A stretch of DNA of 64,000 nucleotides from a virus. Where the stretch lies: the IMG/VR virus record IMGVR_UViG_3300002307_000034, positions 32,001 through 96,000 of that record; one strand, given 5' to 3'. Shown here one piece after another: positions 4,663 through 63,641 of this stretch. The stretch's first letter is position 1, and each line of letters starts with the position of its first letter. The translations under genes and the position numbers were made by a program. The notes beneath the pieces are model-generated. The model worked only from the letters and a program-made list of their open reading frames with translations. It was not told the origin of the DNA and ran no database searches.

Positions 4663-4694
4663 AACTCCATAATATCAAATTTGATATTTCTTGT

Positions 4695-4973: not shown

Positions 4974-5011
4974 AATAAACTAATTATACTAAAAGAGTGC
5001 CAGACCTCAAA

Positions 5012-7507: not shown

Positions 7508-7638
7508 TGTCCTAATGCGTTTCCATCTTTTTTTACTATCCAGCGTTTACCGCAGGAAATGCAGTAGAGCTCCACTCGTGTTTTCTGAGAAAAGACACGA
7601 TCTATAAAAACTCTTCCATTGCATTTTTTACACCACAT
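7453..7638 (-). CDS. small zinc-ribbon protein
   Basis: CKKC...CISCG pairs. Confidence 0.65.
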   Translation of the reverse strand: MWCKKCNGRVFIDRVFSQKTRVELYCISCGKRWIVKKDGNALGQWLEKIEKDLNKEFCISI

Positions 7639-7663
7639 ATTAAGTTTTGTCTTCTAAGTAATA

Positions 7664-8747: not shown

Positions 8748-8799
8748 TAAAACCTTTCATTTGGGTTTATTATTGTATATTATATTTTATAAGTCAATA

Positions 8800-9234
8800 T
8801 TACTCGTATGAAATTGCAGTAATATGTACAAAAGCTGGGATACCACCAGCAGGAAATGTGCTTGAAGTAATTGTATGCACATCAAAGCTCATTGCATATG
8901 AACTAGTATCAATATTAGTTAAAACTGGAATCATAGGACCTGGTGCAGCTGAGCATTCTACAACAGCACTTACCACTGGTTTATTTTTAAAAGCATTTGG
9001 TGGAACAACAAGATCTAGGGTTTCTTTTGCCCCATTAATTGTAATAGCCACTGTAGTCTGAAAAACAGACATTGCTTGTATTGTACCTGATTGTAAGTAT
9101 GGAAAAACTGAGGCTGAAGCATAATCTCTGCCTTTATAATAATATTGCCCTTTAGACAAAAATTGTTGAACTGATGCCACTTGTGAGCTTAAAGAGCTTA
9201 TTACTGTTGCATCTATAACTACATTACTTGCCAT
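8800..9234 (-). CDS. putative minor virion/tail protein
   Basis: beta-rich, at the end of the tail operon. Confidence 0.5.
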   Translation of the reverse strand: MASNVVIDATVISSLSSQVASVQQFLSKGQYYYKGRDYASASVFPYLQSGTIQAMSVFQTTVAITINGAKETLDLVVPPNAFKNKPVVSAVVECSAAPGPMIPVLTNIDTSSYAMSFDVHTITSSTFPAGGIPAFVHITAISYE

Positions 9235-9259
9235 ATTTTTCTCCTTGTACTATTATACC

Positions 9260-9454
9260 TTATGTTAAATTTGGAACTACAAATACATATCCTACAGACC
9301 AATCAGAAACAGCATTATTGTCTCCGCCAACTGCTTGTACTTGAACAACATATGATGTTCCAGCTTTTAATCCTGTAAGTGTTACAGATGATACTGGTAA
9401 AGGATTTCCTGCTGCATCATATATTATTTGCCCTGGAGTTGCTAATACCATCAT
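9260..9454 (-). CDS. small fibronectin type III-like tail protein
   Basis: VTLTGLKAGTSYVVQVQAV...SDWS Fn3 signature. Confidence 0.65.
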   Translation of the reverse strand: MMVLATPGQIIYDAAGNPLPVSSVTLTGLKAGTSYVVQVQAVGGDNNAVSDWSVGYVFVVPNLT

Positions 9455-11421: not shown

Positions 11422-12302
11422 ACTGTTGCACTTATCCTAAAATTATAACTTACAGCTCCACCCACTGAATCAAACTTTACGCTTGTTGTATATACAGTAG
11501 ATGAAATTATTGTTGCAGATCCATTAATTATAACAGTTTCTGTTATAGGGACTGCAATAAAAGATGATGGATCTATATAAATATTTTCTGGAGTATCCAA
11601 AGCATAGGTTGGAGCAGGAATTGCTGAAGTAGGTTGTGGAACAGATTGCACATCAGTAGATATTGATGGAGCACTTTCTACAGATCCCGATCCGCCATTT
11701 GCTGGAGGTATAGTTATATCAAGTGTGGGGGCATCAATAATTGGAGAAGAGTTAACTGAGCTATAATCTATTACAGATCCCAAAGAGCTGGAAGAATATG
11801 TAGATGTTGAAACACTTGTATCAGTTCCAAGTGTTTGTAAAGAGCTTCCCCAGGCTCCAGGTCCGTAACCAACGTCCCAATATAATTTCCACCCAGTTTG
11901 AGGATAATATTGATAGTGTTGATTTGCACCAGCATCTGTTGGCATTGGTGGGATTAAAGATGTTCTCCATGCTGAAAAATCTGAAGCAGTTGGAACATAG
12001 CCATTTATTGCTCTAAAAGCAATTGCAAAAGCTTCTGTATTCCTAGGGTCTGTTGGATACAATGGTTGAATTGTTGTATTTGTAGGATTTGAAATTGGTT
12101 GAGTATAGCTTGATACATTTGAACTTGACGAAGTTGTTGAAGTTGTTGATGGTCCCGAAGCAGCTATGATCCCAGCAAGTGTTGTTGTATCAACTGTTGG
12201 TCCTGGATTAGTTGGTACATTTGCAGCAGGATCAATGTAAGTCCAAGTTGTTGCACTTGGACTAGGTTCATTACCTCCATCAATTAGCATTCTATCGTAC
12301 AT
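11418..12302 (-). CDS. putative minor tail protein (Ser/Thr/Pro-rich)
   Basis: position in tail operon, composition. Confidence 0.55.
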   Translation of the reverse strand: MYDRMLIDGGNEPSPSATTWTYIDPAANVPTNPGPTVDTTTLAGIIAASGPSTTSTTSSSSNVSSYTQPISNPTNTTIQPLYPTDPRNTEAFAIAFRAINGYVPTASDFSAWRTSLIPPMPTDAGANQHYQYYPQTGWKLYWDVGYGPGAWGSSLQTLGTDTSVSTSTYSSSSLGSVIDYSSVNSSPIIDAPTLDITIPPANGGSGSVESAPSISTDVQSVPQPTSAIPAPTYALDTPENIYIDPSSFIAVPITETVIINGSATIISSTVYTTSVKFDSVGGAVSYNFRISATV

Positions 12303-36364: not shown

Positions 36365-36404
36365 AGTTTATATTATAGCAAATAATACGCTTTTTGCGTA
36401 TATG

Positions 36405-36734
36405 CTACTCTCTACCCCATTTAATCTTGTTCCAAGCACGTTCGTGTGCGTAATAAAGAACGATCTTAATTACAAGTTCAATACCAGAAGCAACAAACGC
36501 TAACTTACCATTATGGGTTAACTCATAAATAATAATAAAAGAGATTAAGTTACCAAAGAATCTCCAACTAATGGCTTTTAATAAAGAACGACCATGTGAT
36601 ACCCACATAATTGGTTTACGAGGGGTTTGATCAGAATAAAGTCTATCTTCTGCATCAGCAATTCCTTGTCCAAGATTTGCCAATATATTAAATACCCATT
36701 TGCTTGCGTTTTTCAGTTGCTGAAATAGCTTCAA
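36405..36734 (-). CDS. DUF2061-like membrane protein
   Basis: RSLLKAISWR...YYAHERAWNKIKWG. Confidence 0.8.
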   Translation of the reverse strand: MKLFQQLKNASKWVFNILANLGQGIADAEDRLYSDQTPRKPIMWVSHGRSLLKAISWRFFGNLISFIIIYELTHNGKLAFVASGIELVIKIVLYYAHERAWNKIKWGRE

Positions 36735-37446
36735 TGTCTGCTCCTAACGATACTTGTTCAATTTTATATCCTACATCCCGCCCATATACAATATTTGTAA
36801 TATTTGGCATTTTAACTATCATTGCATTTTTCATAAATTCATCTTGAGCAATATAACCTTTAACTTGATCAAATGTTAGTGGATCTTTAGGACTTGTATT
36901 GTATGTATTTCTAACACCAAGCATTACTTGACTTGTTCGCTTACCTGCTTCTTCATATAAGGCATGATGACCTTCATGCCAAGGTTGGTAACGTCCAAGC
37001 ATTAAAGTTGTTGGTTCTGACCAATCGTGTAAATTAAATTTTTGAATAATATATGTTGCCTTTTGATATTCATCCATCTCATGTGAATTAAACATGACAT
37101 CAAAAAATTCTGGTTTTTCAAATATTCTATTTGTATTTTCAAAACGCCCTTCAGATATAGTGTTCATCCAAATAATTATATCTGCTTTACCAAAAGCTTT
37201 TCTAGTCTCTTCGGTTGGGCATACAAAATCAGCAATAACAATTTGATTTTGATTATGAAGCAATCTTGATAAAGCACCCATTCTGCGACCTTGCTCTATT
37301 CTATCTTCTACAGTAAAACCCAAATCTTTATTTAAATCAGATCTAACTTCGTCTGCATTTAAAAGTGTTCCGTTTACTCTGTCTGCAAGGACGGTAGCAA
37401 TAGTTGTCTTTCCACTACCTGGCAAACCTATAATTTGTATAATCAT
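36688..37446 (-). CDS. cysC: adenylyl-sulfate kinase fused to HxGH nucleotidyltransferase domain
   Basis: GLPGSGKTT, NADEVR..L.KDLGFT.EDR.EQ, ADFVCP; C-terminal LGRYQPWHEGH. Confidence 0.85.
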   Translation of the reverse strand: MIIQIIGLPGSGKTTIATVLADRVNGTLLNADEVRSDLNKDLGFTVEDRIEQGRRMGALSRLLHNQNQIVIADFVCPTEETRKAFGKADIIIWMNTISEGRFENTNRIFEKPEFFDVMFNSHEMDEYQKATYIIQKFNLHDWSEPTTLMLGRYQPWHEGHHALYEEAGKRTSQVMLGVRNTYNTSPKDPLTFDQVKGYIAQDEFMKNAMIVKMPNITNIVYGRDVGYKIEQVSLGADIEAISATEKRKQMGI

Positions 37447-37449
37447 TTA

Positions 37450-38127
37450 TTATCCATTCCAAAACAACTCTTTATTATTATATATTTCTAAATCTTTTTG
37501 ATTTAAACTTTCAATAAATTTTATTTCTTTTTTACTTAACATTTTATACAATATTTTAGATGAATCATTTATGTTATGATCATTTAATATGTATTGACTT
37601 TTATTATACACCTTTTTTAATGATAAGTCTTTGTGTATTTTATATTTAAGTTTTTCACATTTAACATTTGTTAAACTATCATTTCTTATTAAAATATTTA
37701 TTCTTTTTAACCTATCAATAAGTAATTTATCATTGATTTTTATTGTATTAAATTCTGGAGTATCTTTTATATCTAAAGTTGGGCCGAGTGGGGCGGAGTC
37801 GTATAAAAAACTTTTTGATTGAAAATTAGATATATATGTATTATTTTTTTCTAACCATTTCATCATGTTTAAAACATTAATTTCTAAATTATTATTAAAA
37901 TGTTTATGATTCCAAGCATAGTGACTTACAGTTCTTTCAATTGGATTTCTGATACTGGATATTACATATGTTTTATCATCAACCTTTGACCAATAAGCGT
38001 GTTGATCTTGTTTTATTTTTATTTTAGCATCTTTTAATCCAGGTGTTAAATAATCTATAATTTCAGATCTAATGAAATGACCAGCTGTTTTAGGTATATG
38101 TAAAAAATAAAAACTTTCATAAATCAT
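37450..38127 (-). CDS. sulfotransferase family protein
   Basis: FLHIPKTAG 5'-PSB loop, RNPIERTVS 3'-PB. Confidence 0.8.
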   Translation of the reverse strand: MIYESFYFLHIPKTAGHFIRSEIIDYLTPGLKDAKIKIKQDQHAYWSKVDDKTYVISSIRNPIERTVSHYAWNHKHFNNNLEINVLNMMKWLEKNNTYISNFQSKSFLYDSAPLGPTLDIKDTPEFNTIKINDKLLIDRLKRINILIRNDSLTNVKCEKLKYKIHKDLSLKKVYNKSQYILNDHNINDSSKILYKMLSKKEIKFIESLNQKDLEIYNNKELFWNG

Positions 38128-38812
38128 TTAAATCAATTACCATTTTTTCTTGTTCCTGCCATCCTATGTAATCTTTATTCCAATTTAAACTTGCAGTTAA
38201 ATGAATAAATGCATCATTATAATATGATGCTTTATTATTTCCTAAATATTTTATACTATCTACTGAATATATTTTTATATCATTTTTTTTATTATTATCT
38301 AAATAATTATTAATTCCTTTAGTCCAGGCCATCACTCCAGTAATTCTATCAACAAATCTTATATCTTTATAATTTGGTTCTTTAAAATTATCTTCTACGC
38401 AATCAATAACACTTTTAAGAAGTTTATGTTTTGGCTTTGATGCAAATGATATTTGATTATAAAAATAATCGTCATCGTCTTTCGAAATAATTAAATTATA
38501 GCCAGGTACGACCCACTCTTCAATTTTTTTATTACAAATTGTATCTATATCTACATAAACACCTCCATACGTATAAACAATTAAATACCTCCAAATATCA
38601 CTTTTCATAACTCCAACTGGACAACTATCAAATATGTTTAACCATTTTTTACCAAATTCACGAAAAATAAAAAATCTTATTTGTTCATCATCCATATAAA
38701 TATAATTATATTCTGGATTTAAATATTGCCAAGTTTGAGTTTTTTCTTTAATATACGTTGGCAATTTTTCAAAAGGATCTTTATAAGTTTGCCATATTAT
38801 TTTAGGAATCAT
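38117..38812 (-). CDS. glycosyltransferase, GT32/OCH1-like (DxD)
   Basis: IPKIIWQT, KSDIWRY..YGGVYVDID. Confidence 0.88.
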   Translation of the reverse strand: MIPKIIWQTYKDPFEKLPTYIKEKTQTWQYLNPEYNYIYMDDEQIRFFIFREFGKKWLNIFDSCPVGVMKSDIWRYLIVYTYGGVYVDIDTICNKKIEEWVVPGYNLIISKDDDDYFYNQISFASKPKHKLLKSVIDCVEDNFKEPNYKDIRFVDRITGVMAWTKGINNYLDNNKKNDIKIYSVDSIKYLGNNKASYYNDAFIHLTASLNWNKDYIGWQEQEKMVIDLNDL

Positions 38813-39462
38813 ATAGATTTTTCTAAAATTTCATAATCGTCTTTAAAATGATTTTCTATTAAAGATTGCGTGTATTTGCTTAAAATAATGCCTTCGTCTT
38901 TAAAAGTTTTCATTGTTATAGGAAGTTTTATATTTTTATCAAAACCAATTTTTTCTAAAATTATAGGCCATGTTTTTTGAATATTTTTAATATTATACAA
39001 ATCTATTGTTTTATCATAATTAAGTCTTTTTATTTGTGGATTTACTGGTTCTATATTCATAAATAAAATATCTTGTATAAAACCGTCTAGCCCTTTATTT
39101 ATTAGATGAGAATATGATTCTTTTTCTATATCATTTGCTGATTTTTTTGTATAATAATAAAAAGAAATCATTAATTCTTTTGGATCACGAATTGTAGAAA
39201 ATTTATAAAAGTTATTCCACTTTTCATTACCAATTAATTTTTTTATTTTTTCTGCTGATGAATGTTTAGATAATCCTTTTTCTTGAATATTTTTCCAACC
39301 AAAATATTTAGCGTATAAATTTTCTAATTCCATGCCGAAAGACAAGCCTCCAAAAATATAATCATCCCATTCTAAATATGGAGTTAAGGCTTCTTCTATA
39401 GAAGTTCCTCCAGTTTTATGTAAATGTATATATATAAATTTTTTAGAATTACTAATTATCAT
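38809..39462 (-). CDS. sulfotransferase family 2 protein
   Basis: FIYIHLHKTGGTS, RDPKELMISFY, FKDDYE. Confidence 0.85.
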   Translation of the reverse strand: MIISNSKKFIYIHLHKTGGTSIEEALTPYLEWDDYIFGGLSFGMELENLYAKYFGWKNIQEKGLSKHSSAEKIKKLIGNEKWNNFYKFSTIRDPKELMISFYYYTKKSANDIEKESYSHLINKGLDGFIQDILFMNIEPVNPQIKRLNYDKTIDLYNIKNIQKTWPIILEKIGFDKNIKLPITMKTFKDEGIILSKYTQSLIENHFKDDYEILEKSI

Positions 39463-39961
39463 TTTTTTCCTTAATTTTTAAAAGCAAATAATCTGCATTT
39501 GCTTTTATATGTTTAAATTTACCCTGTTCAAATTCAAAATCTTTTCTTTTTTTCATAAATGGACAAAATATTCTTGCTTGTTTCATACATTCAATATGAA
39601 AAGGCATTATATCTGAAAACACTCTGGGACCTTTTTCATCATTTATTAATCCATCTTTATAACATCTTCCGTCTTCTGTTTTTTCTGAATTCCAACTTAT
39701 GCAAATTTCTTCTGGTAAAAAAGATAAACCACAATAACCGCAAATATTATCTGGTTTTACCTTTTTTTCATTTTTTGTTATAACATTAAACATAGCATTA
39801 TTTTTTAATATAGGTTTTGATTGCCATGGAATTGGAATATTTTTATTTATAAAATAATCTGCTTCTTTTCTAAATTTTTCTGGAACATGAACCATAGGTC
39901 TTGGTAAACCTAAAATTTCATCTTGTTCATCCCAATTTGAAAAATCTTTAATTATTTTCAT
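39452..39961 (-). CDS. hypothetical Cys/His-containing protein
   Basis: CGYCG and FHIEC..A..FCPF motifs. Confidence 0.6.
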   Translation of the reverse strand: MKIIKDFSNWDEQDEILGLPRPMVHVPEKFRKEADYFINKNIPIPWQSKPILKNNAMFNVITKNEKKVKPDNICGYCGLSFLPEEICISWNSEKTEDGRCYKDGLINDEKGPRVFSDIMPFHIECMKQARIFCPFMKKRKDFEFEQGKFKHIKANADYLLLKIKEKNDN

Positions 39962-55018: not shown

Positions 55019-55167
55019 TTGGCTGAAGAGCTTTCAGCTCTTACTCCCGCTTTTTCTAAAGTTAATCCACATCTTGTACATGCTTCATATGATTTACCTG
55101 TAAAAGGACATCCACCTATATCTACTAGTGTATGTTTTTTAAATAAACAAATTAAAAATCTAAACAT
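55015..55167 (-). CDS. 50-aa zinc-finger-like protein (not in ORF track)
   Basis: MFRFLICLFKKHTLVDIGGCPFTGKSYEACTRCG...; overlaps the oxygenase stop. Confidence 0.65.
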   Translation of the reverse strand: MFRFLICLFKKHTLVDIGGCPFTGKSYEACTRCGLTLEKAGVRAESSSAN

Positions 55168-55645
55168 TTTCTTCCTTTACTAAACTAATTGTAAAAAAGT
55201 ATCTTGTACCTTTTATAACTTTATTTACTCCATGTGGATGATATGACATAAAATATACTAGATCACCTTTTTTAGGTTTATGAGTAAAATATTCTTCATG
55301 GATATCAGCAAATATCTCCCCACCTTCATAATTATCATTTAAATATAATAAAGCTCCATATTCATTTTGAGGATCTACATGTTTATACATACCAATTCCT
55401 TTGTCATATATAGTAGCTATATATCCAGATAATTTTGAATATCCGTTATCAAAGTAATTTGCAACTTTATACCTATACTTTTCTACGATTTCTAGCATTT
55501 CTGGATCTTTACTATTTATAAGACCAATTCTTCCATCATCTCTTTTTATTAAAGATCCTTCTTCTCTCATTGTATTTAATTTTACAATGATTTTATTGCA
55601 ATCTTCTTCTGATATAAAATTCTCTACAATTGTTACTTTATCCAT
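55160..55645 (-). CDS. 2OG-Fe(II) oxygenase (prolyl-4-hydroxylase-like)
   Basis: HVD, LYLNDNYEGGE, HGV..V..GTRY. Confidence 0.88.
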   Translation of the reverse strand: MDKVTIVENFISEEDCNKIIVKLNTMREEGSLIKRDDGRIGLINSKDPEMLEIVEKYRYKVANYFDNGYSKLSGYIATIYDKGIGMYKHVDPQNEYGALLYLNDNYEGGEIFADIHEEYFTHKPKKGDLVYFMSYHPHGVNKVIKGTRYFFTISLVKEENV

Positions 55646-55647
55646 AA

Positions 55648-56256
55648 TTACCTTTTTACATAAATGATATTTACTTGATGTCCATATATATCTACATTAG
55701 ATCTAGCAAATTCTTTAAATCCATATCCCGCCAAATAATTTTCTACATCAGTTGCTAACCATTGATTCTTCCAAAATTCTTTTGTTTCAACTTCAATATG
55801 TATACTAGACACCTCGTCTAATAATTTACTAGCACCTTGTAGAACTTCTCTATTTGCTCCTTCACAATCAATCCATAAAGCAATATTTGAGTTCATCCCT
55901 GCAAAATCATCTAACGCTACAGCTTCTACTTTTACATATTTGTAATCAATATCTTCTGCACGTTTCATAATTGTATTATGCCCAGTGTTTTCTGGATCAA
56001 ATCTTGTATCTATTTGAAACATAACTATATCATCTTGATAAGATACAGCTTTGTTTATATATTTTACTCCAGGATGCATGCTATCTTTAAACTTCTCATA
56101 TACATATGGACTTGCTTCAAAAGCATATGCTCTAATTCCCGCCATTGCCATTGTATTAGAAAATTCTCCTGCATGTGCTCCAACTTCAATAGAAACATTT
56201 GGAACAAGATCTTTTTGCATACGGATAAAAGTTGATGCTAATTCTTCTTGAGTCAT
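55648..56256 (-). CDS. FkbM-family methyltransferase
   Basis: EVGAHAG, AFEA, LWIDCEGA..EVLQGA, IEV. Confidence 0.88.
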   Translation of the reverse strand: MTQEELASTFIRMQKDLVPNVSIEVGAHAGEFSNTMAMAGIRAYAFEASPYVYEKFKDSMHPGVKYINKAVSYQDDIVMFQIDTRFDPENTGHNTIMKRAEDIDYKYVKVEAVALDDFAGMNSNIALWIDCEGANREVLQGASKLLDEVSSIHIEVETKEFWKNQWLATDVENYLAGYGFKEFARSNVDIYGHQVNIIYVKR

Positions 56257-56408: not shown

Positions 56409-56493
56409 TGTGACCCAAATCACAAAGATTTTTTGCAAATTGTCTCAAATGTCCGTTTTGCGACTTGATTTTGTCAGTGTACTAGTGTAGTAT
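56409..56493 (+). promoter_or_regulatory. early promoter module 1: CRP box, -35 TTGATT, TGTCAG element, -10 TAGTAT
   Basis: TGTGAcccaaaTCACA 56409-24; TTGATT 56465-70; TGTCAG 56472-77; TAGTAT 56488-93. Confidence 0.8.
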
Positions 56494-56549
56494 TTATACT
56501 ATAAGAGTTAATAAAGGTTATTAGCACTTCTTAAAGAAAGGTTATCCAA

Positions 56550-56693
56550 ATGATAACACTAAACTATACTTCTCTAGATTCTGACAATTCCGCCCGTTCT
56601 TTTGTGGGGTACTTCCATACAGAGAAAGCGGTCAATGACTACCTTGACCTAGTCTCAATAGATGAGACAATCCTCACAGTCAGCGTGATATAA
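56550..56693 (+). CDS. 47-aa hypothetical early protein
   Basis: GAAAGG RBS, MITLNYTSLDSDNSARSF... Confidence 0.65.
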   Translation: MITLNYTSLDSDNSARSFVGYFHTEKAVNDYLDLVSIDETILTVSVI

Positions 56694-56759
56694 ATCACAA
56701 AACCTGACTGGTCAGATACGGCGTGTCGCATTGACTTTCGCCAAATAGTGTGATAGTAT
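56684..56759 (+). promoter_or_regulatory. early promoter module 2: CRP box, GGCGTGTC box, TTGACT-N17-TAGTAT
   Basis: CGTGAtataaaTCACA 56684-99; GGCGTGTC 56720-27; -35 56731-36; TGn -10 56754-59. Confidence 0.8.
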
Positions 56760-56815
56760 TCCACTATAAAATTAAATAAGAATAAATAAGAAAGAGTCTA
56801 GAAAGGACTACTATA

Positions 56816-57034
56816 ATGAATAACTACTATAATGAAATCCGCAAGGACATCGCTAAAGACTTTGGTCTAGAGGCTGGTGGCTATGCTCCACTTCCTGCCC
56901 CTGCCTTGTCTATCGTTCAGGCTATGCGCCTTAATGCTAAGTACCCTAGCGAGGCGTTATCTACACGCCCTAGCGATAAGGCTATACTAATCGCTAAGCG
57001 ATACGCTAGCCTAAAGAAAGTCTGGTCTAACTAA
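56816..57034 (+). CDS. hypothetical early protein
   Basis: GAAAGGA RBS. Confidence 0.7.
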   Translation: MNNYYNEIRKDIAKDFGLEAGGYAPLPAPALSIVQAMRLNAKYPSEALSTRPSDKAILIAKRYASLKKVWSN

Positions 57035-57120
57035 TGACTATAAATAGCCTAACACTAATACAACTAGGTCTAATGTCGTACCTAGTTGCTAAACTAATAA
57101 CAACTAAGAAAGAGGACTAA
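57034..57120 (+). CDS. 28-aa hydrophobic peptide
   Basis: TAATG overlaps at both ends; MTINSLTLIQLGLMSYLVAKLITTKKED. Confidence 0.5.
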   Translation: MTINSLTLIQLGLMSYLVAKLITTKKED

Positions 57121-57320
57121 TGAAAACTAAGGTTATCACTACCGCCCTACTAATAACGCTAGTACCTGCCACCGCACAGGCTAGCACTCACCACCACCGC
57201 ACACCTAGAACTTATTCGGTGTATAATACAAATGTGTATAGAGGACAGATGACTAAGATGAAATCTGCTCTCGGTATCCACTACCATACATACACACCTA
57301 AGCACCACAAGAAATACTAA
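57120..57320 (+). CDS. small secreted-like basic His-rich protein
   Basis: signal-peptide-like MKTKVITTALLITLVPATAQA. Confidence 0.6.
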   Translation: MKTKVITTALLITLVPATAQASTHHHRTPRTYSVYNTNVYRGQMTKMKSALGIHYHTYTPKHHKKY

Positions 57321-57333
57321 GAAAGGAAAACTG

Positions 57334-57510
57334 ATGACTATGACTTATGTACCTACTTGGGAGCGTGTCTATAATCCTTGGGACACAGAACCCGATTTCT
57401 ATGATTTATCACAAATTGAAGAAGAAGAAAACGAAAAACAAAAAGATGAAATGTCTATCGAAGAAATTGCCGAAGAAGAACTAGAATTAGAAGAGGATTT
57501 TGACCTATGA
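57334..57510 (+). CDS. 58-aa highly acidic protein
   Basis: GAAAGGA RBS; 22 D/E versus 3 K/R. Confidence 0.7.
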   Translation: MTMTYVPTWERVYNPWDTEPDFYDLSQIEEEENEKQKDEMSIEEIAEEELELEEDFDL

Positions 57511-57674
57511 TGAGCCGTAAAGACTATGTAGAAACTGCACGAATTCTAAATAAATATAAATCAGTAATAGATGAAAAAGATTTTTTAGATTTAGCAGATG
57601 ATTTTTCTTTTATGTTTGAAAAAGACAATCCTAATTTTATTGCAGATAAATTTTTAGAGGCTTGCAATAAATAA
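57507..57674 (+). CDS. 55-aa protein, paralogue of 58327..58521
   Basis: MMSRKDYV...F..MFEKDNPNF..DKFLEAC. Confidence 0.75.
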   Translation: MMSRKDYVETARILNKYKSVIDEKDFLDLADDFSFMFEKDNPNFIADKFLEACNK

Positions 57675-57686
57675 AAAAATCGAAGA

Positions 57687-57858
57687 TCGTTGAAGCTTTG
57701 ACTATAATGGTTGAAGCTTCAACTATTTTTTTGGGCGGGGTTTCAATCCCCGCCCGCACTCGGGCGTGTCGCATGTGGTATAAGTCACAAAGTACACGCT
57801 CCATATATTGAGACTACTTGCAAGTATACTAGACAGTAGCGATTTTATGTGTTATACT
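57687..57858 (+). promoter_or_regulatory. early promoter module 3: MarR-like pair, GC hairpin/26-bp repeat, CRP box, IclR-like box, TACT-N4-AGTA, TAGACA-N17-TATACT
   Basis: motifs at 57687-704 and 57708-25, 57748-73, 57774-89, 57798-814, 57815-26, 57830-35, 57853-58. Confidence 0.75.
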
Positions 57859-57902
57859 TCCAGTATTGAAAAATTAAATAAGAAAAAAGTTAGTTAATCA
57901 AC

Positions 57903-57942
57903 GGCGTGTCGCCTTGATTTTCCGCAGAAAGTCTGCTAAACT
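57903..57942 (+). promoter_or_regulatory. promoter GGCGTGTC-N3-TTGATT-N17-TAAACT
   Basis: same geometry as the 56720-56759 promoter. Confidence 0.75.
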
Positions 57943-57966
57943 AACGATAGTTAAAAATAAAGAAAG

Positions 57967-58170
57967 GTGGTCAAAATGACTACACTAACAATAAACGAAG
58001 TATGCGTTAAGCATACACCTCATAAAGAATCTATTTCCGTGATTGCTCACGATTTCGATTCTGCCGATTATTTCACTTTTTGTGAAAATTGTGAACAAAA
58101 CATAGAAAGTTTTTCTTTCTATGATGATGACAGAGGTACTGTCTATACTAAGTGGACACTTAGTAAGTAA
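57967..58170 (+). CDS. hypothetical early protein (CxxC)
   Basis: GAAAGG RBS; likely ATG at 57976; TFCENCEQNI. Confidence 0.7.
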   Translation: MVKMTTLTINEVCVKHTPHKESISVIAHDFDSADYFTFCENCEQNIESFSFYDDDRGTVYTKWTLSK

Positions 58171-58187
58171 AGAAAGGATAAACTTAA

Positions 58188-58322
58188 ATGATAGCAATTA
58201 AATGTGATGAATGCGGTGGTGCAGGATTTATTTTTTTTGGTAATGAAAATGATTTTGATGTAATGAAATGCGATTGCATTTCTGATGATGTTGATTTTAC
58301 TGATGGAATTATGGGGGCTTAA
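58188..58322 (+). CDS. 44-aa zinc-finger-like protein
   Basis: GAAAGGA RBS; CDECGGAG...CDC. Confidence 0.7.
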   Translation: MIAIKCDECGGAGFIFFGNENDFDVMKCDCISDDVDFTDGIMGA

Positions 58323-58326
58323 ATAA

Positions 58327-58521
58327 ATGATGACTAGAAAAGACTATGTGAGTGTAGCCAATATTCTAAATGATATTGCTAAGCCTAATATGGATATGGT
58401 TCCTTTTGAGGATTTAGTAGCAGAGTTTGCAGATATGTTTTTTGCAGATAATCCTAATTTCTCTCCCACCCGTTTTGAAATGGCTTGCTATGGAAATGAT
58501 GAGGGTGGTGATGTTAAATGA
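58327..58521 (+). CDS. hypothetical protein, paralogue of 57507..57674
   Basis: MMTRKDYV...FADMFFADNPNF..TRFEMAC. Confidence 0.75.
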   Translation: MMTRKDYVSVANILNDIAKPNMDMVPFEDLVAEFADMFFADNPNFSPTRFEMACYGNDEGGDVK

Positions 58522-58622
58522 AAAACGAAGATCCATTTGGATTTGCAAATGCAATTCAGCTTGATCATCTTAATTTTGAACAATTAAAAGAATTAGAAAA
58601 GATTTTAGATAAAATTAAATAG
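58518..58622 (+). CDS. 34-aa hypothetical protein
   Basis: ATGA overlap; MKNEDPFGFANAIQLDHL... Confidence 0.6.
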   Translation: MKNEDPFGFANAIQLDHLNFEQLKELEKILDKIK

Positions 58623-58628
58623 CTGATA

Positions 58629-58783
58629 AGTATAATTATGCAAATCACTGCATAATTATGCAAGCCCCGCCCGCACTCGGGCGTGTCGCATTACGGTGTG
58701 AGATTTGTCACACAGGTTGAGCGTCTCAAAATGTGGAATTACTTACGAGTAGGTAGAATAATGTCAGTGGTATCGTGTATAAT
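58629..58783 (+). promoter_or_regulatory. early promoter module 4: tandem ARG-like boxes, 26-bp repeat, CRP box, IclR-like box, TACT-N4-AGTA, TGTCAG-N10-TATAAT
   Basis: 58629-42 and 58649-62; 58665-90; 58697-712; 58723-39; 58740-51; 58762-83. Confidence 0.8.
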
Positions 58784-58819
58784 TCCTACTATTAACAAGA
58801 AAGAAAGAAGGTAGCAAAT

Positions 58820-59041
58820 ATGCTAATCTCAACAGCCCTAGAAGGCAAATATGTAAAGTCCTCAAAAGGACAAGGAATAATCCAGTACGCAGATTTCCGC
58901 AAGGATATGCGACACTCTACGCCCGAAGGCTATCTTGCTTATGCTTGCAAAGTACGCCCACACTGGAACGGCGAAGGATTTCCTAAGCCTGATTTCTGGA
59001 CAACAATTTATGTCGGACTTGATTCAGAATTGGTGGACTAA
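58820..59041 (+). CDS. hypothetical early protein
   Basis: GAAGG RBS downstream of module 4. Confidence 0.7.
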   Translation: MLISTALEGKYVKSSKGQGIIQYADFRKDMRHSTPEGYLAYACKVRPHWNGEGFPKPDFWTTIYVGLDSELVD

Positions 59042-59146
59042 ATGGGTAATATCGCAGATGAATTATGGAATAATTATAAAGAGGCTACTTGGAACACAAT
59101 GTCAGTGCCACCTGCTACAATATGGGAAACAAAGGAGAACGACTAA
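59042..59146 (+). CDS. 34-aa peptide containing an internal promoter
   Basis: MGNIADELWNNYKEATWNTMSVPPATIWETKEND; stop overlaps the next ATG. Confidence 0.5.
   Translation: MGNIADELWNNYKEATWNTMSVPPATIWETKEND
59100..59121 (+). promoter_or_regulatory. TGTCAG-N10-TACAAT promoter
   Basis: exact spacing; AAGGAG RBS and ATG at 59146 downstream. Confidence 0.75.
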
Positions 59147-59355
59147 TGGAATATAGTTATGTAATTACTACACACTATGACGGCGATTATTTTTCGTCGC
59201 ATAGATTTTCAGATGCACTAACTGCTGTAAATGCGTTTAATAAATGCGTAGATGTAGGAGATGCAAAAGAATATGCAACTTATAATCTATTAGAGCCAAA
59301 TGGCAAAATGCATACACTTAATTTTTATAGAAATGGGGCAGTAAATGGGAAGTAA
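59146..59355 (+). CDS. hypothetical early protein
   Basis: ATG at 59146 with AAGGAG; part of ORF 59089..59355. Confidence 0.7.
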   Translation: MEYSYVITTHYDGDYFSSHRFSDALTAVNAFNKCVDVGDAKEYATYNLLEPNGKMHTLNFYRNGAVNGK

Positions 59356-59644
59356 TCTAGCAACAGAATTAGCTGGAAGTGAATTAGGTTTATCTATGGA
59401 AGATAGTATTGGTATGCACTTGCGTGTTAATCACTACCCTCCCGTCCCAATTTCTATGGTACAGCCTTGCATAGATGCTATTGACGCATATTGGGAAGAA
59501 GACTTAAATCGTGAGATCGAATTACCTGAAGGCGTATCTTGGCGTGGCAATACCTATGCACCCGCATATGCTATTATTGAGAATCATCACTTGGAAGCCT
59601 GGTGCCAGGAAGATGAATACTTAGATGAAGAAGAATTGGTGTGA
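59345..59644 (+). CDS. hypothetical early protein (acidic)
   Basis: HL..NHYPPVP...C..AI, HHLEAW. Confidence 0.75.
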   Translation: MGSNLATELAGSELGLSMEDSIGMHLRVNHYPPVPISMVQPCIDAIDAYWEEDLNREIELPEGVSWRGNTYAPAYAIIENHHLEAWCQEDEYLDEEELV

Positions 59645-59706
59645 TGTAACTCACACCAGACACGCCCATAGTGGATTGGACAAAGGTTGTTCCGCTATGG
59701 TAAAAT
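59640..59706 (+). promoter_or_regulatory. early promoter module 5: CRP box, inverted GACACGCC, TGGACA-N18-TAAAAT
   Basis: TGTGAtgtaacTCACA 59640-55; GACACGCC 59659-66; -10 59701-06. Confidence 0.75.
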
Positions 59707-59744
59707 ACCACCTATAAACAACAACAAAAGAAAAGAGAAATAAA

Positions 59745-59909
59745 ATGACAGTATCAAACAAGACATACGCAGTAGGCGACCTATTCACCACACAGAAGTC
59801 AAAGGTGACAGGCACTATCAAGGAAATCAACCCTATCAACGCAAGCACGACCCGTGTGCTGCTTGATGTCGAAGGCAAAGACCGCTGGACAACAGTATCG
59901 TTTGCGTAA
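59745..59909 (+). CDS. 54-aa small beta-barrel-like protein, paralogue of 60479..60649
   Basis: TYAVGDLFTTQKSKVTGTI..I.P....TRV.L. Confidence 0.75.
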   Translation: MTVSNKTYAVGDLFTTQKSKVTGTIKEINPINASTTRVLLDVEGKDRWTTVSFA

Positions 59910-59921
59910 TTAAATAATAAT

Positions 59922-59954
59922 TGGCAGGAGGGTGTCAGACCCTCCTGCTATACT
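59922..59954 (+). promoter_or_regulatory. TGTCAG-N10-TATACT promoter embedded in a hairpin
   Basis: GCAGGAGGGT-gtcag-ACCCTCCTGC; TGTCAG 59933-38, TATACT 59949-54. Confidence 0.7.
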
Positions 59955-59991
59955 ATCTCTCATAACAAACCCGAATAGAAAGTAGAAATAA

Positions 59992-60408
59992 ATGTCAAGA
60001 GCAATCACAGTAAAGGTGGCAACACCAAAGGTAATCAAGGCTTTGGAAACAAAGTTGGCAACAATTAAAACTGATTATGCTAATCAGGAAAAGAACGAAG
60101 CAAAGTATCAGAAGGACTTTGAGAAGTATCGCAAGGCTCTTGCTGATTATGCTATTGCTAACATCAAGAAAGCAACTAACATCAGAACTAATCATCGCTC
60201 TTGGAATAATAGCCTTAACATTGACTTTGATGTTGATACACAAGGTGCTAATTTTCCTGCTGAGCCACAGCGTGAGTTTGAGCAACTACACGCACACACA
60301 TACAAGGAAATTGTAGAGGACATCTCAAATGCTCTCACAATTCTAAAAATGACAGACGAGGAAACAGTAAATGCTTCTACTATGAAGCAAATCGCTAAGT
60401 ATCTCTAA
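59992..60408 (+). CDS. hypothetical early protein (coiled coil)
   Basis: 138 aa, biased codons. Confidence 0.8.
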   Translation: MSRAITVKVATPKVIKALETKLATIKTDYANQEKNEAKYQKDFEKYRKALADYAIANIKKATNIRTNHRSWNNSLNIDFDVDTQGANFPAEPQREFEQLHAHTYKEIVEDISNALTILKMTDEETVNASTMKQIAKYL

Positions 60409-60415
60409 ATAATAC

Positions 60416-60445
60416 AAGACCTGAGCATAGTCTTAAAACTGCTCA
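60416..60445 (+). ncRNA. candidate H-type RNA pseudoknot in an intergenic leader
   Basis: S1 AAGAC/GTCTT, S2 TGAGCA/TGCTCA, loops of 1, 2 and 5 nt. Confidence 0.55.
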
Positions 60446-60478
60446 CACTATAACCCGAAATAGAAAAGGAAAAAAATA

Positions 60479-60649
60479 ATGACTTTGCAAGGATACACAT
60501 ATCAAATTGGTGATTTATTCACAACATCTAAAACTGGAGTAACTGGTCGCATCATTAAGTTTGCACCAATCTCAAATAAAGTAACTCGTGTTCAATTGCA
60601 ATTAGCAAATGGCTCAAAGCGATTTGCTATGGTTAAAACTTCTATCTAA
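60479..60649 (+). CDS. 56-aa protein, paralogue of 59745..59909
   Basis: AAAGGA RBS; TYQIGDLFTTSKTGVTGRI. Confidence 0.75.
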   Translation: MTLQGYTYQIGDLFTTSKTGVTGRIIKFAPISNKVTRVQLQLANGSKRFAMVKTSI

Positions 60650-60742
60650 TAAAATAATTAAAGTGGTCGTGAGTGATAACAGGTAAGTGTTATAGTAGCC
60701 TATAACCACCACTTTATTTTTTGGATCTGCAGCTGCTAATAA

Positions 60743-60881
60743 TAGTTGAACATTCAACCAAAACCCCGCCCCGCACTCGGGCGTGTCGTTACGAATGTGA
60801 TTTTAATCACTTGAATTTTGTCTCAAATAATAAGATTAAGGGCGTGTCGAGTGGACAAATGTCAGTGCGTTTTGGTATACT
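60743..60881 (+). promoter_or_regulatory. early promoter module 6: MarR-like box, repeat, CRP box, IclR-like box, GGCGTGTC, TGGACA, TGTCAG-N10-TATACT
   Basis: 60743-60; 60764-88; 60796-811; 60820-36; 60841-48; 60852-57; 60860-81. Confidence 0.8.
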
Positions 60882-60912
60882 AGCGACAGTTAAACAGAAA
60901 GAAGGTCTATTC

Positions 60913-61029
60913 ATGAACCTAGATGAATTTAAGACACATGTCCTTGCAACACGCAAGGCTTCACAGGCAGAAGCGATGTCAGTCCTATCTGCTACAATAC
61001 AACCTCAACCCGAAAAGAAAGAAGAATAA
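60913..61029 (+). CDS. 38-aa peptide containing an internal promoter
   Basis: GAAGG RBS; MNLDEFKTHVLATRKASQAEAMSVLSATIQ... Confidence 0.65.
   Translation: MNLDEFKTHVLATRKASQAEAMSVLSATIQPQPEKKEE
60977..60998 (+). promoter_or_regulatory. TGTCAG-N10-TACAAT promoter
   Basis: exact spacing, upstream of the gene at 61035. Confidence 0.7.
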
Positions 61030-61034
61030 ATAAA

Positions 61035-61514
61035 ATGGAAAATCTAACAATGTCTCAGGCTCGTGTAATTATTGACGAAGCCGTTGCAAATTTTGATGGA
61101 AACCTATCAGATGAAACAATTTCTCAAATTGTTTTTGCTATGAATGAAAATTTACAGATTCGTGATTACACCCTAGGCTTACCTATTAACTATGGAGTCG
61201 AGCATATGGTACAATTCTTTACTTATATCTCAGACCGAATTCCATCGGATGAGGCATATGCGGTTAATACCGTATTAGCAATGTTTGAGTATGAATTAGG
61301 CGAAACAGATATTGCTTCCCACCTCATTCAATCTGTAAATGGGACTAGAGTCTACTCTCTTGCCCTTCTTGCGACTCGTGTTATAAATGCAGGATGGCCA
61401 TCAGATTCTTTCGTTGCAATGCGTAACGAATTGGCACCCAAAGTTATTGCAAATATCGAAGAATTAGGAGATGAGGTAATTGGTCAAAAATTGGATGAAA
61501 ATGAACTTGTCTAA
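61035..61514 (+). CDS. DUF4192-like protein
   Basis: QIRD..LG, YSLALL..RV..AGWP pattern recalled from this actinobacterial family. Confidence 0.6.
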   Translation: MENLTMSQARVIIDEAVANFDGNLSDETISQIVFAMNENLQIRDYTLGLPINYGVEHMVQFFTYISDRIPSDEAYAVNTVLAMFEYELGETDIASHLIQSVNGTRVYSLALLATRVINAGWPSDSFVAMRNELAPKVIANIEELGDEVIGQKLDENELV

Positions 61515-61617
61515 AGTTCAACGCATACAAGAATTGCGACGCAGTAATGCGTCGCAACCTCTACGCAATAAAAAGAAATACACCCGAAAAAACAAATATA
61601 AGAAAGTAGAAGAATAA
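61501..61617 (+). CDS. 38-aa basic peptide
   Basis: MNLSKVQRIQELRRSNASQPLRNKKKYTRKNKYKKVEE. Confidence 0.65.
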   Translation: MNLSKVQRIQELRRSNASQPLRNKKKYTRKNKYKKVEE

Positions 61618-61881
61618 ATGTCAAATCTCTCAACCGCCCTTGCACTACAAGAAGGAATTTCTGAAATTGTCTTCTCTGATGAAGTAATGATTTATGCAGC
61701 TGAAATTGCAAAAAATGCAGATTTTAATCCTGAAGTTTTAGAATTAATAATGAAATACGCTTCTACACTATCCGCAGGCGTTGCAACAAAAGTTGTAGAA
61801 ATTGTAATGCCTAAATCTGAATTTAGTTCTATGATGAAAGAACTTAAAGAAATGCAAGAGATTGGAGATTCAATTGAATAA
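61618..61881 (+). CDS. hypothetical early protein
   Basis: abuts the previous stop. Confidence 0.7.
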   Translation: MSNLSTALALQEGISEIVFSDEVMIYAAEIAKNADFNPEVLELIMKYASTLSAGVATKVVEIVMPKSEFSSMMKELKEMQEIGDSIE

Positions 61882-62071
61882 GTCAACTGGACAAAACATT
61901 CACACAAAATGGATCCAAGATGCATTGGGTGTGAGCACTGCAGTAGCACTACGTGTGCAAAAAGAAATTAATCAAAACTATGATTTAGATTGGTCTGAAG
62001 CAGATATGGACGAAATCGAATTTACTGCAATGTTGGCGTTTGAAAATATGAATGTAACACATAGCTTTTAG
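61874..62071 (+). CDS. hypothetical early protein
   Basis: GGAG then TTG at 61874, in frame with ORF 61862..62071; LDWSEA motif. Confidence 0.6.
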   Translation: MNKSTGQNIHTKWIQDALGVSTAVALRVQKEINQNYDLDWSEADMDEIEFTAMLAFENMNVTHSF

Positions 62072-62155
62072 TTGCGACGGGTGAGAGAGACGGTGGGTCC
62101 AAGGGTTGGGCCCACTGTTACCACTTGACAAATGCAAATTTTTGGGGCGGGGCTT

Positions 62156-62187
62156 TGTGATGCAAATCACATGTGATTAAGATCACA
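62156..62187. promoter_or_regulatory. two abutting perfect CRP/GlxR-type boxes
   Basis: TGTGAtgcaaaTCACA-TGTGAttaagaTCACA. Confidence 0.75.
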
Positions 62188-62301
62188 TGCATAAGGTTTG
62201 ACCAATCACCCTTACGAATGATAGAATCATCCAATGGAATCAATAATGCTCGTGCCCGTTTTGTTCTTTTTGTCACCATTTATGATGGCTTTTCTAGCGT
62301 A

Positions 62302-62367
62302 TGTGTTTTATGTCACAATTAAAATACGTTGATAGGCTTGACGAATGTCAGTCCAGTCTGATATACT
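62302..62367 (+). promoter_or_regulatory. early promoter module 7: CRP-like box, TTGACG, TGTCAG-N10-TATACT
   Basis: TGTGTtttatgTCACA 62302-17; TGTCAG 62346-51; TATACT 62362-67. Confidence 0.8.
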
Positions 62368-62398
62368 TACGGCTTAACCAAAATGAAAGAAGGTCAAA

Positions 62399-63433
62399 AT
62401 GAACCAAAATACAGTCCATCAATCTGAAATCGAATCCGGCGAAGCGTCTTTTGCTATTGTCGAATCTCGTTCCAATCCTGCTTGGCATAGTTTTGCTAAC
62501 AAGGTTTTCGATAAGGATATCGAAACTCCTACAGTTACAGAAATTATGGATGCTGCTAAATTATCTAATTGGAATGTTCGACTTGAGCCTATTGCCGAAT
62601 TAGTTCCTGACTACAATATGATTAGCGATTCTTATCTTGTTGTCCGTGATAATCCATATGGTAAAGGTAAGGATGTTCTTGCAACAGTAGGCTCACGCTA
62701 TAAAGAAGTGCAGAATGAAGATTTATTTGCATTTGCAGAAAATCTACACGACTCCAATCCTGACGTTAAAATTGATTCAGCAGGTTCATTTAAGAGTGGA
62801 CGTGTTGTTTATGGTTCTTGGTCTGTACCTAACCAATTAGTTCTTGACCCAAAGGGTGCTAACGATGTAACGAATCTATATTTGATTTGCTACACCTCAC
62901 ACGATGGGTCTGTGTCTGTGCAGGTTGCTTTAACGCCTGTCCGTGTTAAATGTCAAAATACACTTAATTTTGCTATGAAACGTGCTAAGCAATCTTTCAA
63001 GTTGCGTCATACTCAAACAGTAGACGGAAAAATTGCACAGGCTCGTGAGGCTTTAGGTTTATCTATTGCATATATGGATGAATTCTCTAAGCAAGCGAAT
63101 GAATTATTTACTCGTGAGGTAACAGCGTTAGATTTTAGCAAAATCATCACAACACTTTATCCTAAGCCTGAATCAGATAAAAAAGGTTCGCTTAAAAAGT
63201 GGGAATCAAAAGTTGTTTTGCTTGACGAGTTGTATCACAATTCACCTACCAATGAAAATATCAAAGGTACTGCTTGGGGCGTAGTTAATGCATTAACCGA
63301 ACGCCTTGATTATTATCGCACAGCCCGCAAGGGTAATGGTGAATCGCTTGTTTATTCTGCAAGTGGTTTTGACCCTGTAATAAATGCAGAAAAAAATAAA
63401 ATTGTTAAAGCGGTTTTGCAACTAACTGCTTAA
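62399..63433 (+). CDS. DUF932/DUF945-family phage/plasmid-like protein
   Basis: PAWH, V..RY..VQN...F, SHDGS, TPVRV.CQNTL, RHT, GTAWG..NA.TE..D. Confidence 0.85.
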   Translation: MNQNTVHQSEIESGEASFAIVESRSNPAWHSFANKVFDKDIETPTVTEIMDAAKLSNWNVRLEPIAELVPDYNMISDSYLVVRDNPYGKGKDVLATVGSRYKEVQNEDLFAFAENLHDSNPDVKIDSAGSFKSGRVVYGSWSVPNQLVLDPKGANDVTNLYLICYTSHDGSVSVQVALTPVRVKCQNTLNFAMKRAKQSFKLRHTQTVDGKIAQAREALGLSIAYMDEFSKQANELFTREVTALDFSKIITTLYPKPESDKKGSLKKWESKVVLLDELYHNSPTNENIKGTAWGVVNALTERLDYYRTARKGNGESLVYSASGFDPVINAEKNKIVKAVLQLTA

Positions 63434-63439
63434 TAAATC

Positions 63440-63471
63440 GGGGGCGAGAAATCGCCCCCACATTTTTTTTT
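63440..63471 (+). terminator. intrinsic terminator
   Basis: GGGGGCGA-GAAA-TCGCCCCC followed by a T9 run. Confidence 0.9.
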
Positions 63472-63487
63472 AGATCAAGAGCTGCAA

Positions 63488-63641
63488 TTTATAAATATGC
63501 AAAGCGTTGCATAATTATGCATCCTCGGGGTATGTGATGTAAAACACAATTACGATATGTCCGAATTATCACTTGAATACCAATTACGAAGATCAAATTA
63601 CGAATTACGATTGGACATATGTCAGTGGTATATGTTAGAAT
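63488..63641 (+). promoter_or_regulatory. early promoter module 8: tandem ARG-like boxes, CRP-like box, AATTACGA x4, TGGACA, TGTCAG-N10-TAGAAT
   Basis: 63488-501 and 63508-21; 63533-48; 63548-610; 63620-41. Confidence 0.8.

Follow-up and report, generated by a model that had tools for sequence, protein, structure and literature searches.

A small-gene arm with an array of composite promoters

The 64,000-nucleotide stretch analysed here (the window) comprises bases 32001-96000 of the IMG/VR virus record IMGVR_UViG_3300002307_000034, which is 104,950 bp long, is rated 97% complete and has a GC content of about 34%. From 56.4 to 64 kb of the window the + strand carries an arm of small genes whose promoters form an array assembled from recurring boxes, and it is this array, a conserved multi-part promoter grammar, that is described below. 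The larger proteins of the arm are a DUF932 protein, an Api92-like protein and a methyltransferase, the rest belonging to no recognised family. The arm is probably early and anti-defence-type, the label 'early' being drawn from gene content and synteny alone. The opposite strand encodes structural, replication and sugar-modification genes, and its promoters are ordinary TTGACA/TATAAT ones with none of the boxes of the arm.

We counted 13 promoters in the arm within the window, eight with a TGTCAG core and five with plain -35 and -10 hexamers (Table 1). An initial annotation, made from the sequence of the window by a model, had proposed about ten promoters built from the same parts in a conserved order. 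Every motif that it listed is present where it was placed, and alignment of its three full modules and of the module at 56409 bore out the fixed order of parts with diverged sequence between them; the array therefore stands, with a higher count, the cores at 59100, 59933, 60977 and 64349 having been missed. The enrichment that it expected was also found, the GC box, GGCGTGTCG, the CRP-type sites and the TGTCRG-N10 cores all occurring in the arm far above chance when compared with the rest of the genome and with shuffled sequence. We also found the module grammar in 18 relatives and in over 80 other IMG/VR contigs, and the boxes co-occur in promoters with odds ratios of 4-30.

The phage portal protein shares 51-53% identity with its counterparts in Streptomyces phages of 120-133 kb, Karimac (Stanwilliamsviridae) among them, and the DUF932 protein of the arm 47% with Karimac gp3, which lies within the equivalent terminal small-gene arm of that phage. 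A profile search also revealed a phage-encoded WhiB-like protein (42.7 bits, above the cut-off), a family taken to mark actinophages (PMC10202952). Judged from its sequence, the phage is a roughly 105-kb, lytic-type actinophage, distant kin of the Streptomyces phages of the Karimac group. Because it encodes a WhiB and its portal and DUF932 proteins resemble those of Streptomyces phages, its host is, on this evidence, an actinobacterium, probably a low-GC freshwater one and not a high-GC model species. Given the genome GC of 34%, M. smegmatis and C. glutamicum would be stand-in hosts only. No match was returned by blastn of the arm region against cultured phages, by Rfam on 52-64 kb, or by a scan of a genome collection with the phage WhiB that was aimed at the host.

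The PafBC-type promoter core

The pattern TGTCRG-N10-TAnnnT occurs nine times in the whole genome (1.3 in shuffles), always on the + strand and within 8 kb, with starts at 56472, 58762, 59100, 59933, 60860, 60977, 62346, 63620 and 64349 in window numbering, the ninth lying just beyond the window end. When TGTCRG and TAnnnT are set at N8, N9, N11 or N12 instead, the genome yields 0-4 occurrences each. We fetched 18 related IMG/VR loci via the DUF932 gene (53-86% identity, GC 35-39%; given L numbers below), and these hold 161 further cores, only 2 of which lie off the small-gene-arm strand. The consensus of 151 promoters of the relatives is AATGTC(A/G)GTG(S)..T.TGnTAnAAT, the fifth letter of the -26 element being A over G in the clade (69%) and the TG of an extended -10 being present in 67-89% of cores.

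An IMG/VR-wide pattern scan with the extended core consensus returned at least 120 stretches with the correct spacing, against 7 for the control, the same pattern with one more spacer base. Among 80 of the matched loci listed there were 662 N10 cores against 5 N9 and 4 N11, and the cores formed strand-pure arrays of up to 16. A match to the -35 consensus at 4 of 6 positions was absent from 84% of 816 clade cores and present in 16%. The motif in the spacer is kept even between phages with DUF932 proteins only 53% identical.

This core was compared with that of the actinobacterial DNA-damage promoters that are read by PafBC. The RecA-NDp motif has been given as tTGTCRgtg, 8 nt, TAnnnT (PMC5656591), and chromatin immunoprecipitation of PafBC gave tGTCgg(N10)tA(N3)T, in promoters that are hybrids without a -35 and whose -26 element, at -28 to -23, is the site of the PafB helix-turn-helix in cryo-electron microscopy (PMC8635444). 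PafBC is activated by single-stranded DNA, of which 6 nt or more suffices, and binds only polymerase that is already on a matching promoter, not promoter DNA without polymerase (PMC11804915). That the phage core equals the published PafBC/RecA-NDp motif letter for letter and in spacing, as the initial annotation had it, is well supported as a likeness between sequences.

Like the PafBC (RecA-NDp, recA P1-type) promoters of Mycobacterium and other Actinobacteria, the phage promoters place TGTC(A/G)GTG at -28 to -21 with an 8-nt gap to TAnnnT, have a canonical -10 and, in the clade, mostly lack a -35 (PMC8635444, PMC11804915, PMC5656591). Unlike those of the hosts, they are phage-borne, stand in arrays of 9-16 per genome, favour A at the fifth letter and strongly keep the extended TG; some copies have a -35-like hexamer, and CRP-type sites lie upstream, a pairing with a PafBC-type core that we did not find described for host promoters.

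CRP/GlxR-type palindromes in phase with the core

Allowing one mismatch, 11 of the 14 genomic TGTGA-N6-TCACA sites lie at 56409-63548 and the other 98 kb hold three. Six of the sites are perfect, all of them within the 7 kb of the arm, where five more have one mismatch. The consensus of 132 distinct sites, TGTGAt.TA.aTCACA, equals that of GlxR, TGTGANNTANNTCACA (PMC4254451), and the CRP/GlxR assignment made at the outset is thus well supported at the level of the motif.

Positions are numbered with the -10 hexamer set at -12 to -7, start sites being assumed. On this scale the nearest site centres in the clade fall at -54.5, -64.5, -74.5, -84.5/-85.5, -94.5 and -103.5 to -107.5 (those of the window are given in Table 1). 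A Rayleigh analysis peaked at 10.5 nt, with R 0.69 in 54 sequence clusters and R 0.70 for the 329 promoters with a CRP-type site in a set of 746 non-identical ones. Such whole-turn phasing of the palindromes to the -10 is the hallmark of class I activation. In class I CRP promoters of the E. coli lac type the centres lie at -61.5, -71.5, -82.5 and -92.5. The phage centres are about 3 nt further upstream (-64.5, -74.5, -84.5) under the assumed start site; the 16-bp palindrome, the central TA preference and the steps of ~10.5 nt upstream of the core are shared with class I promoters and the GlxR-Crp regulons (PMC4254451).

Because the palindromes are phased to the -10, contact with polymerase is favoured over a pure decoy role. 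The decoy idea of the initial annotation, in which multicopy sites would titrate PafBC, CRP, WhiA or ArgR off host genes after phage DNA replication, is very improbable: replication would indeed multiply the CRP-type sites (about 10 per genome copy) and the PafBC-type sites (9), yet titration requires no constant helical phase and no -10 at exactly N10, both of which are kept, the sites occur only upstream of promoters in one arm, and PafBC does not bind promoter DNA without polymerase (PMC11804915).

GC boxes and GACAC-containing boxes

The GGCGTGTCG box has six exact copies, none of them off the + strand or outside 56720-60849, and nine copies when one mismatch is allowed (1.15 expected). 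The 23-nt GC box has three copies (57749, 58666 and 60766) against none in shuffles. In an unbiased 8-mer count of promoter-upstream regions the GGCGTGTC box came top, followed by AAATGTCCGATTT, GTTACGAA, the palindrome halves and GAGCGTCTCA. It occupies two habitats, one centred about -42, where it abuts the -35 position mostly as ACGGCGTGTCGC, and one ~20 nt upstream of the CRP centre, where it is mostly TCGGGCGTGTC fused to GC-rich sequence; GACACGCC is centred at -49.5, and other positions occur too. The box is found in either orientation, and in the relative L009 the whole 22-nt GC box is inverted.

The WhiA core, GACAC, is contained in GGCGTGTC. In its known setting this motif lies just upstream of the -35, on either strand and at variable spacing, and a WhiB bridges WhiA to sigma region 4 (PMC10243135). 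The phage boxes resemble such WhiA/WhiB promoters (S. venezuelae sepX; PMC10243135) in having an asymmetric GACAC upstream of the -35, on either strand and with variable spacing, alongside a phage-encoded WhiB; they differ in that the phage box is longer ((A/C)(C/G)GGCGTGTC(G)) and also stands far upstream, fused to GC-rich sequence. The WhiA assignment of the initial annotation is accordingly plausible for the GACAC within GGCGTGTC, its abutment on the -35 and the phage WhiB, and is tempered by the fact that a core of only five letters is shared within a box of 8-9, which another protein could read.

A reading of the GC box as a conserved RNA hairpin is statistically unconvincing, 120 copies having a mean z of -0.86 and the three local copies z of -1.0 to -2.5. 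An 8-bp GC hairpin precedes GC box copy 1 (whole-stretch hairpin z -2.5), and in some relatives GC-box stems of different sequence still pair.

ARG-box-like pairs, further operators and terminators

The box TGCATAATTATGCA is present in two identical copies (58649 and 63508), each preceded at exactly 20 nt by a degenerate box, and these ARG-box-like pairs (TGCAT-N4-ATGCA cores) lie at about -134 and -154, far upstream of the promoter. Copies related to TGCATAATTATGCA sit at the same module heads in relatives. Both the tandem geometry and the half-site are those of the best Streptomyces ARG boxes, such as the tandem pairs of argH and argG with TGCAT-N4-ATGCA cores and centres 20 nt apart (PMC5839063); unlike the Streptomyces operators, there are only two here, at about -134/-154 rather than over the promoter. 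With one mismatch allowed the ARG-box motif was not enriched (5 copies vs 5.7 expected). The ArgR reading of the TGCATAATTATGCA boxes, part of the earlier set of assignments, keeps the tandem geometry in its favour, with the lack of enrichment and the far-upstream placement against it, and is weak.

The palindrome GTTGAA-N2-TTCAAC recurs at module heads in four relatives (L005, L013, L014 and L020), and nothing ties it to the MarR or IclR families. The 'palindrome' at 57689-57723, at the head of the module that the initial annotation placed at 57687, is an intrinsic terminator. We found nothing to support the MarR/RosR or IclR labels that had been attached to some sites, no matrix of these families having been compared. 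Nor are GTCTCA-N5-TGRRR and TACT-N4-AGTA general parts, as had been thought: they belong mainly to one promoter (58719-58752), that of the gene at 58820, to which GAGCGTCTCA and a TTACT-N4-AGTA(A/G) repeat are specific and in whose orthologues they are kept. A few further operators are likewise specific to single promoters.

A recurrent box that was absent from the initial annotation, AAATGTCCG(A/T)TTT, is centred near -58 in the clade. The ATGTCCG(A/T) box stands at 56449-56455 and 63557-63563 in the window, and in the relatives L017 (about 4110-4140) and L009 (about 7720-7745) it forms direct repeats with a 9-nt period (ATGTCCGAC ATGTCCGAA). ATGTCCG(A/T)TT was rejected as a DnaA box, only 5 of its 9 letters matching the actinobacterial DnaA box TTGTCCACA.

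At three places the -26 element of a promoter lies within the loop or 3' arm of the hairpin that terminates the gene before it (window 59924-59954; L004, about 5060-5105; L006, about 8900-8950). The stems of this hairpin differ between phages yet pair, being GCAGGAGGG/CCCTCCTGC here and CCCCACC/GGTGGGG in L006. Promoter P11 ends 6 nt before the ATG (62234) of an open reading frame (ORF) for a 32-amino-acid hydrophobic membrane peptide without a ribosome-binding site, and from this distance and the lack of a ribosome-binding site its transcript is a candidate leaderless one; leaderless transcripts are common in actinobacteria.

Table 1. Promoters, operators and terminators of the small-gene arm, in window coordinates; centres are relative to the assumed start site of the promoter named.
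Feature	Position	Strand	Remarks
Inverted repeat TTAGACA-N13-TGTCTAA	56368-56394		Divergence point of leftward genes and arm; kept upstream of the first promoter in L005 and L009
Perfect CRP/GlxR-type palindrome	56409-56424	+	Centre -83.5 of P1
GTCTCA, then ATGTCCG box	56442-56455	+	Between CRP site and P1 core
P1 core, TGTCAG (-26 element)-N10-TAGTAT	56472-56493	+	
CRP-type site, 1 mismatch	56684-56699	+	Centre -76.5 of P2
GGCGTGTCG box abutting P2 (TTGACT-17-TAGTAT)	56720-56759	+	P2 without -26 element
Intrinsic terminator, 16-pair hairpin (57689-57723) and T-run	57689-57731	+	
GC box copy 1, ending in GGCGTGTCG	57749-57771	+	Possible 6-bp hairpin CGCCCG/CGGGCG
CRP-type site, 1 mismatch	57774-57789	+	Centre -83.5 of P3
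P3, TAGACA-17-TATACT, TG before -10	57830-57858	+	Without -26 element
GGCGTGTCG box abutting P4 (TTGATT-17-TAAACT)	57903-57941	+	
Tandem ARG-box-like operator, degenerate and perfect TGCATAATTATGCA	58629-58662		Centres 20 nt apart, about -154/-134 of P5
GC box copy 2, identical to copy 1	58666-58688	+	Hairpin z -1.0
Perfect CRP-type palindrome	58697-58712	+	Centre -85.5 of P5
GAGCGTCTCA box and imperfect TTACT-N4-AGTAG repeat	58719-58752	+	P5-specific
P5 core, TGTCAG-N10-TATAAT	58762-58783	+	
P6 core, TGTCAG-N10-TACAAT	59100-59121	+	Inside end of preceding ORF
Perfect CRP-type palindrome, then reversed 1-mismatch GGCGTGTC box	59640-59666	+	Palindrome centre -66.5 of P7
P7, TGGACA-18-TAAAAT	59677-59706	+	Without -26 element
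P8, TGTCAG-N10-TATACT, TGTCAG in loop of 10-pair hairpin	59924-59954	+	Terminator/promoter overlap
Long hairpin, 9-bp closing stem and T-run	60660-60722	+	Likely terminator of preceding unit; z only -1.0
Palindrome GTTGAA-N2-TTCAAC	60745-60758		Module head
GC box copy 3, 2 mismatches	60766-60788	+	
CRP-type site, 1 mismatch	60796-60811	+	Centre -84.5 of P9
P9: GGCGTGTCG box (centre -43.5), TGGACA, TGTCAG, TATACT	60841-60881	+	
P10 core, TGTCAG-N10-TACAAT	60977-60998	+	Inside preceding ORF
Two adjoining perfect CRP-type palindromes	62156-62187	+	Upstream of P11; centres -70.5/-54.5
P11, TTGACC-18-TAGAAT	62198-62227	+	
CRP-type site, 1 mismatch	62302-62317	+	Centre -64.5 of P12, inside peptide ORF
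P12: TTGACG, TGTCAG, TATACT	62338-62367	+	Upstream of DUF932 gene (62399-63433)
Intrinsic terminator after DUF932 gene	63440-63467	+	
Second tandem ARG-box-like operator	63488-63521		Centres 20 nt apart, about -153/-133 of P13
CRP-type site, 1 mismatch, then ATGTCCG box	63533-63563	+	Site centre -107.5 of P13
P13: TGGACA, TGTCAG, TAGAAT	63612-63641	+	Upstream of Api92-like (DUF1281_C) gene, 63668 past window end

Other genes and related contigs

The RecA of the phage is of the full bacterial type (Pfam RecA and RecA_C; genome 30423-31421, - strand), and its substrate would be the very single-stranded DNA by which PafBC is activated. The WhiB lies at genome 5402-5722, and neither gene carries a PafBC-type promoter. 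Many sugar-modification genes lie beyond the arm (genome 760-27000 and window 36400-39500), among them GDP-mannose dehydratase-type epimerases, glycosyltransferases and a C-methyltransferase, and an FkbM methyltransferase and a 2OG-Fe(II) oxygenase are encoded at window 55160-56256.

Scanning the genome collection with the phage RecA recovered phage contigs only, mis-binned into metagenome-assembled genomes (MAGs). The MAGs into which this phage group has been mis-binned bear the labels Bacteroidia, cyanobacterium, Beijerinckiaceae, Methylococcus, Bifidobacterium and Lishizhenia, and such contamination of bins could mislead host prediction. In the 'Bifidobacterium' MAG the sole WhiB is on an 85-kb phage contig, and WhiB is lacking from four small genomes taken as a sample of its phylum, for which reasons we take this MAG not to be actinobacterial. 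In a protein atlas the WhiB clusters were viral only. Related contigs turn up in lake MAG sets, for example in a Lake Mendota bin.

Readers of the boxes

Searching the phage genome with profiles in all six frames, we found no WYL, Crp-type helix-turn-helix, HTH_3 or sigma region 4 domain, and the sole hit was a sub-threshold HTH_17 in a protein encoded amid the virion and packaging genes. Because the phage is without WYL, Crp, Xre and sigma domains, host factors would be the likeliest readers of the boxes, above all at P1, since this first promoter of the arm already carries the full box set. Support for the PafBC-type core and the phased CRP-type box is strong where they are taken as sequence features and moderate where they are taken as targets of host factors. 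We consider it reasonably probable that the composite promoters are read by host PafBC-adapted SigA polymerase together with a host CRP-family dimer, by which the arm would be coupled to the state of the host.

If the promoters are read in this way, the core would consist of a -10 for the housekeeping sigma factor, usually with an extended TG, and, in two thirds of the promoters, of the -26 element TGTC(A/G)GTG in place of a working -35. Most cores have a CRP/GlxR-type palindrome upstream at a distance of whole helical turns. Host PafBC, switched on by single-stranded DNA from infection or DNA damage, would adapt RNA polymerase-SigA to the arm promoters; a host CRP-family dimer on the same helix face would modulate initiation in class I fashion; and the GGCGTGTC box may recruit host WhiA and a WhiB, possibly that of the phage itself. 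The arm would thus be tied to the DNA-damage and energy state of the host. Given its activation by single-stranded DNA, such a use of PafBC would suit a phage that makes DNA ends or breaks down host DNA. That this large, abundant freshwater actinophage group as a whole borrows PafBC for the entire arm, with the single-stranded DNA of infection as trigger, in combination with class I activation by host CRP and with WhiA and the phage WhiB, is a tentative and rather doubtful extension of this proposal.

Several observations weigh against reading by host factors. The single-stranded DNA that PafBC requires would be awkward for the very first transcription event, and the cultured relative Karimac has neither a TGTCRG-N10 core nor a CRP-type palindrome in its first 50 kb, which hold its equivalent arm. 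No fold is known for the majority of the small arm proteins, any one of which could bind DNA without having been recognised. Related phages do not provide independent counts. Several TGTCAG cores of the window carry a -35-like TGGACA or TTGACG with an 18-nt spacer, and a footprint made from the DUF932 promoters of 14 phages shows few conserved columns, among which are both the -35 GAC and the -26 element ATGTCAG, together with TG-TA..A.T and the ribosome-binding site. Given this hexamer and the conserved GAC, the -35-bearing TGTCAG promoters may fire without PafBC, so that some promoters of the window may also have a PafBC-independent basal mode.

The boxes might alternatively be read by proteins of the phage, encoded in the arm or delivered with the virion, in the manner of MotA/AsiA, their likeness to host sites then being mimicry or coincidence. 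Nearly all arm proteins belong to no recognised family, the phage has its own WhiB, a sigma-region-4 binder (PMC10243135), and the different intergenic grammar of Karimac indicates that the lineage can invent its own signals. We nevertheless judge this unlikely: none of the WYL, Crp, Xre and sigma domains came up in the six-frame searches, the complete set of boxes is present from P1 onwards in the sense that this first promoter already carries it, and a 9-letter match with exact spacing to a host motif is very improbable by chance. The array does share with the middle promoters of T4 ('sigma appropriation' by MotA/AsiA) a phage gene block in which the -35 is replaced by an element read by an adaptor, but the adaptor of T4 is phage-encoded and remodels sigma, whereas in this arm we saw no adaptor of the phage, and the element belongs to a host adaptor.

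Karimac itself has a homologous terminal small-gene arm, including the DUF932/DUF945 gene, with gaps that hold a terminator hairpin, a GC-rich box and a promoter. Its own cassette (1100-11600) consists of a GGCCCCTTCGGGGCC-type terminator, a GCCGCCCCGG box, AAAAGATCTTG and a TAGACT -10, and its first 50 kb contain one stray GGCGTGTC, at 14784. Modular intergenic cassettes thus seem to be a trait of the lineage, their letters differing.

A further alternative is that the arm has plain SigA promoters, strong and constitutive, which combine an extended -10 with, in this window, a -35. The conserved spacer TGTCAGTG and the upstream boxes would then tune strength or DNA shape, or would serve as insulating terminator-promoter cassettes that also favour the shuffling of genes, as promoter-early stem-loops do in T4-type phages. 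In its favour are the extended TG of 67-89% of the cores, the -35-like hexamers of the window promoters and the position of the GC boxes at gene ends beside terminators, where a short hairpin is possible; the identity of two GC boxes over 23 nt could reflect recent copying. Set against this, most members of the clade have no -35, the spacer motif is kept at 53% DUF932 protein identity, the CRP-type sites are helically phased and the z-scores of the GC-box hairpins are unremarkable, and we regard constitutive promoters as distinctly unlikely. Reading by host PafBC-adapted polymerase and a host CRP-family dimer remains the interpretation that we prefer.

Implications for actinophage biology

PafBC promoters, and sigma adaptation by PafBC, are known only from host DNA-damage genes, and a full-text literature search for PafBC or RecA-NDp with phage found no paper describing phage promoters of this type. 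If the proposed reading is true, the arm would be the first case of sigma adaptation put to use by a virus, and its promoters a natural code with multiple inputs that is legible from sequence. Several hundred natural promoter variants would then be available for studying the geometry of PafBC, CRP and WhiA/WhiB on one polymerase. The phage would exploit the single-stranded-DNA alarm of its host, with expression strength gated by cyclic AMP or energy state, and there would be a testable rule for when abundant lake actinophages turn on their anti-defence-type genes.

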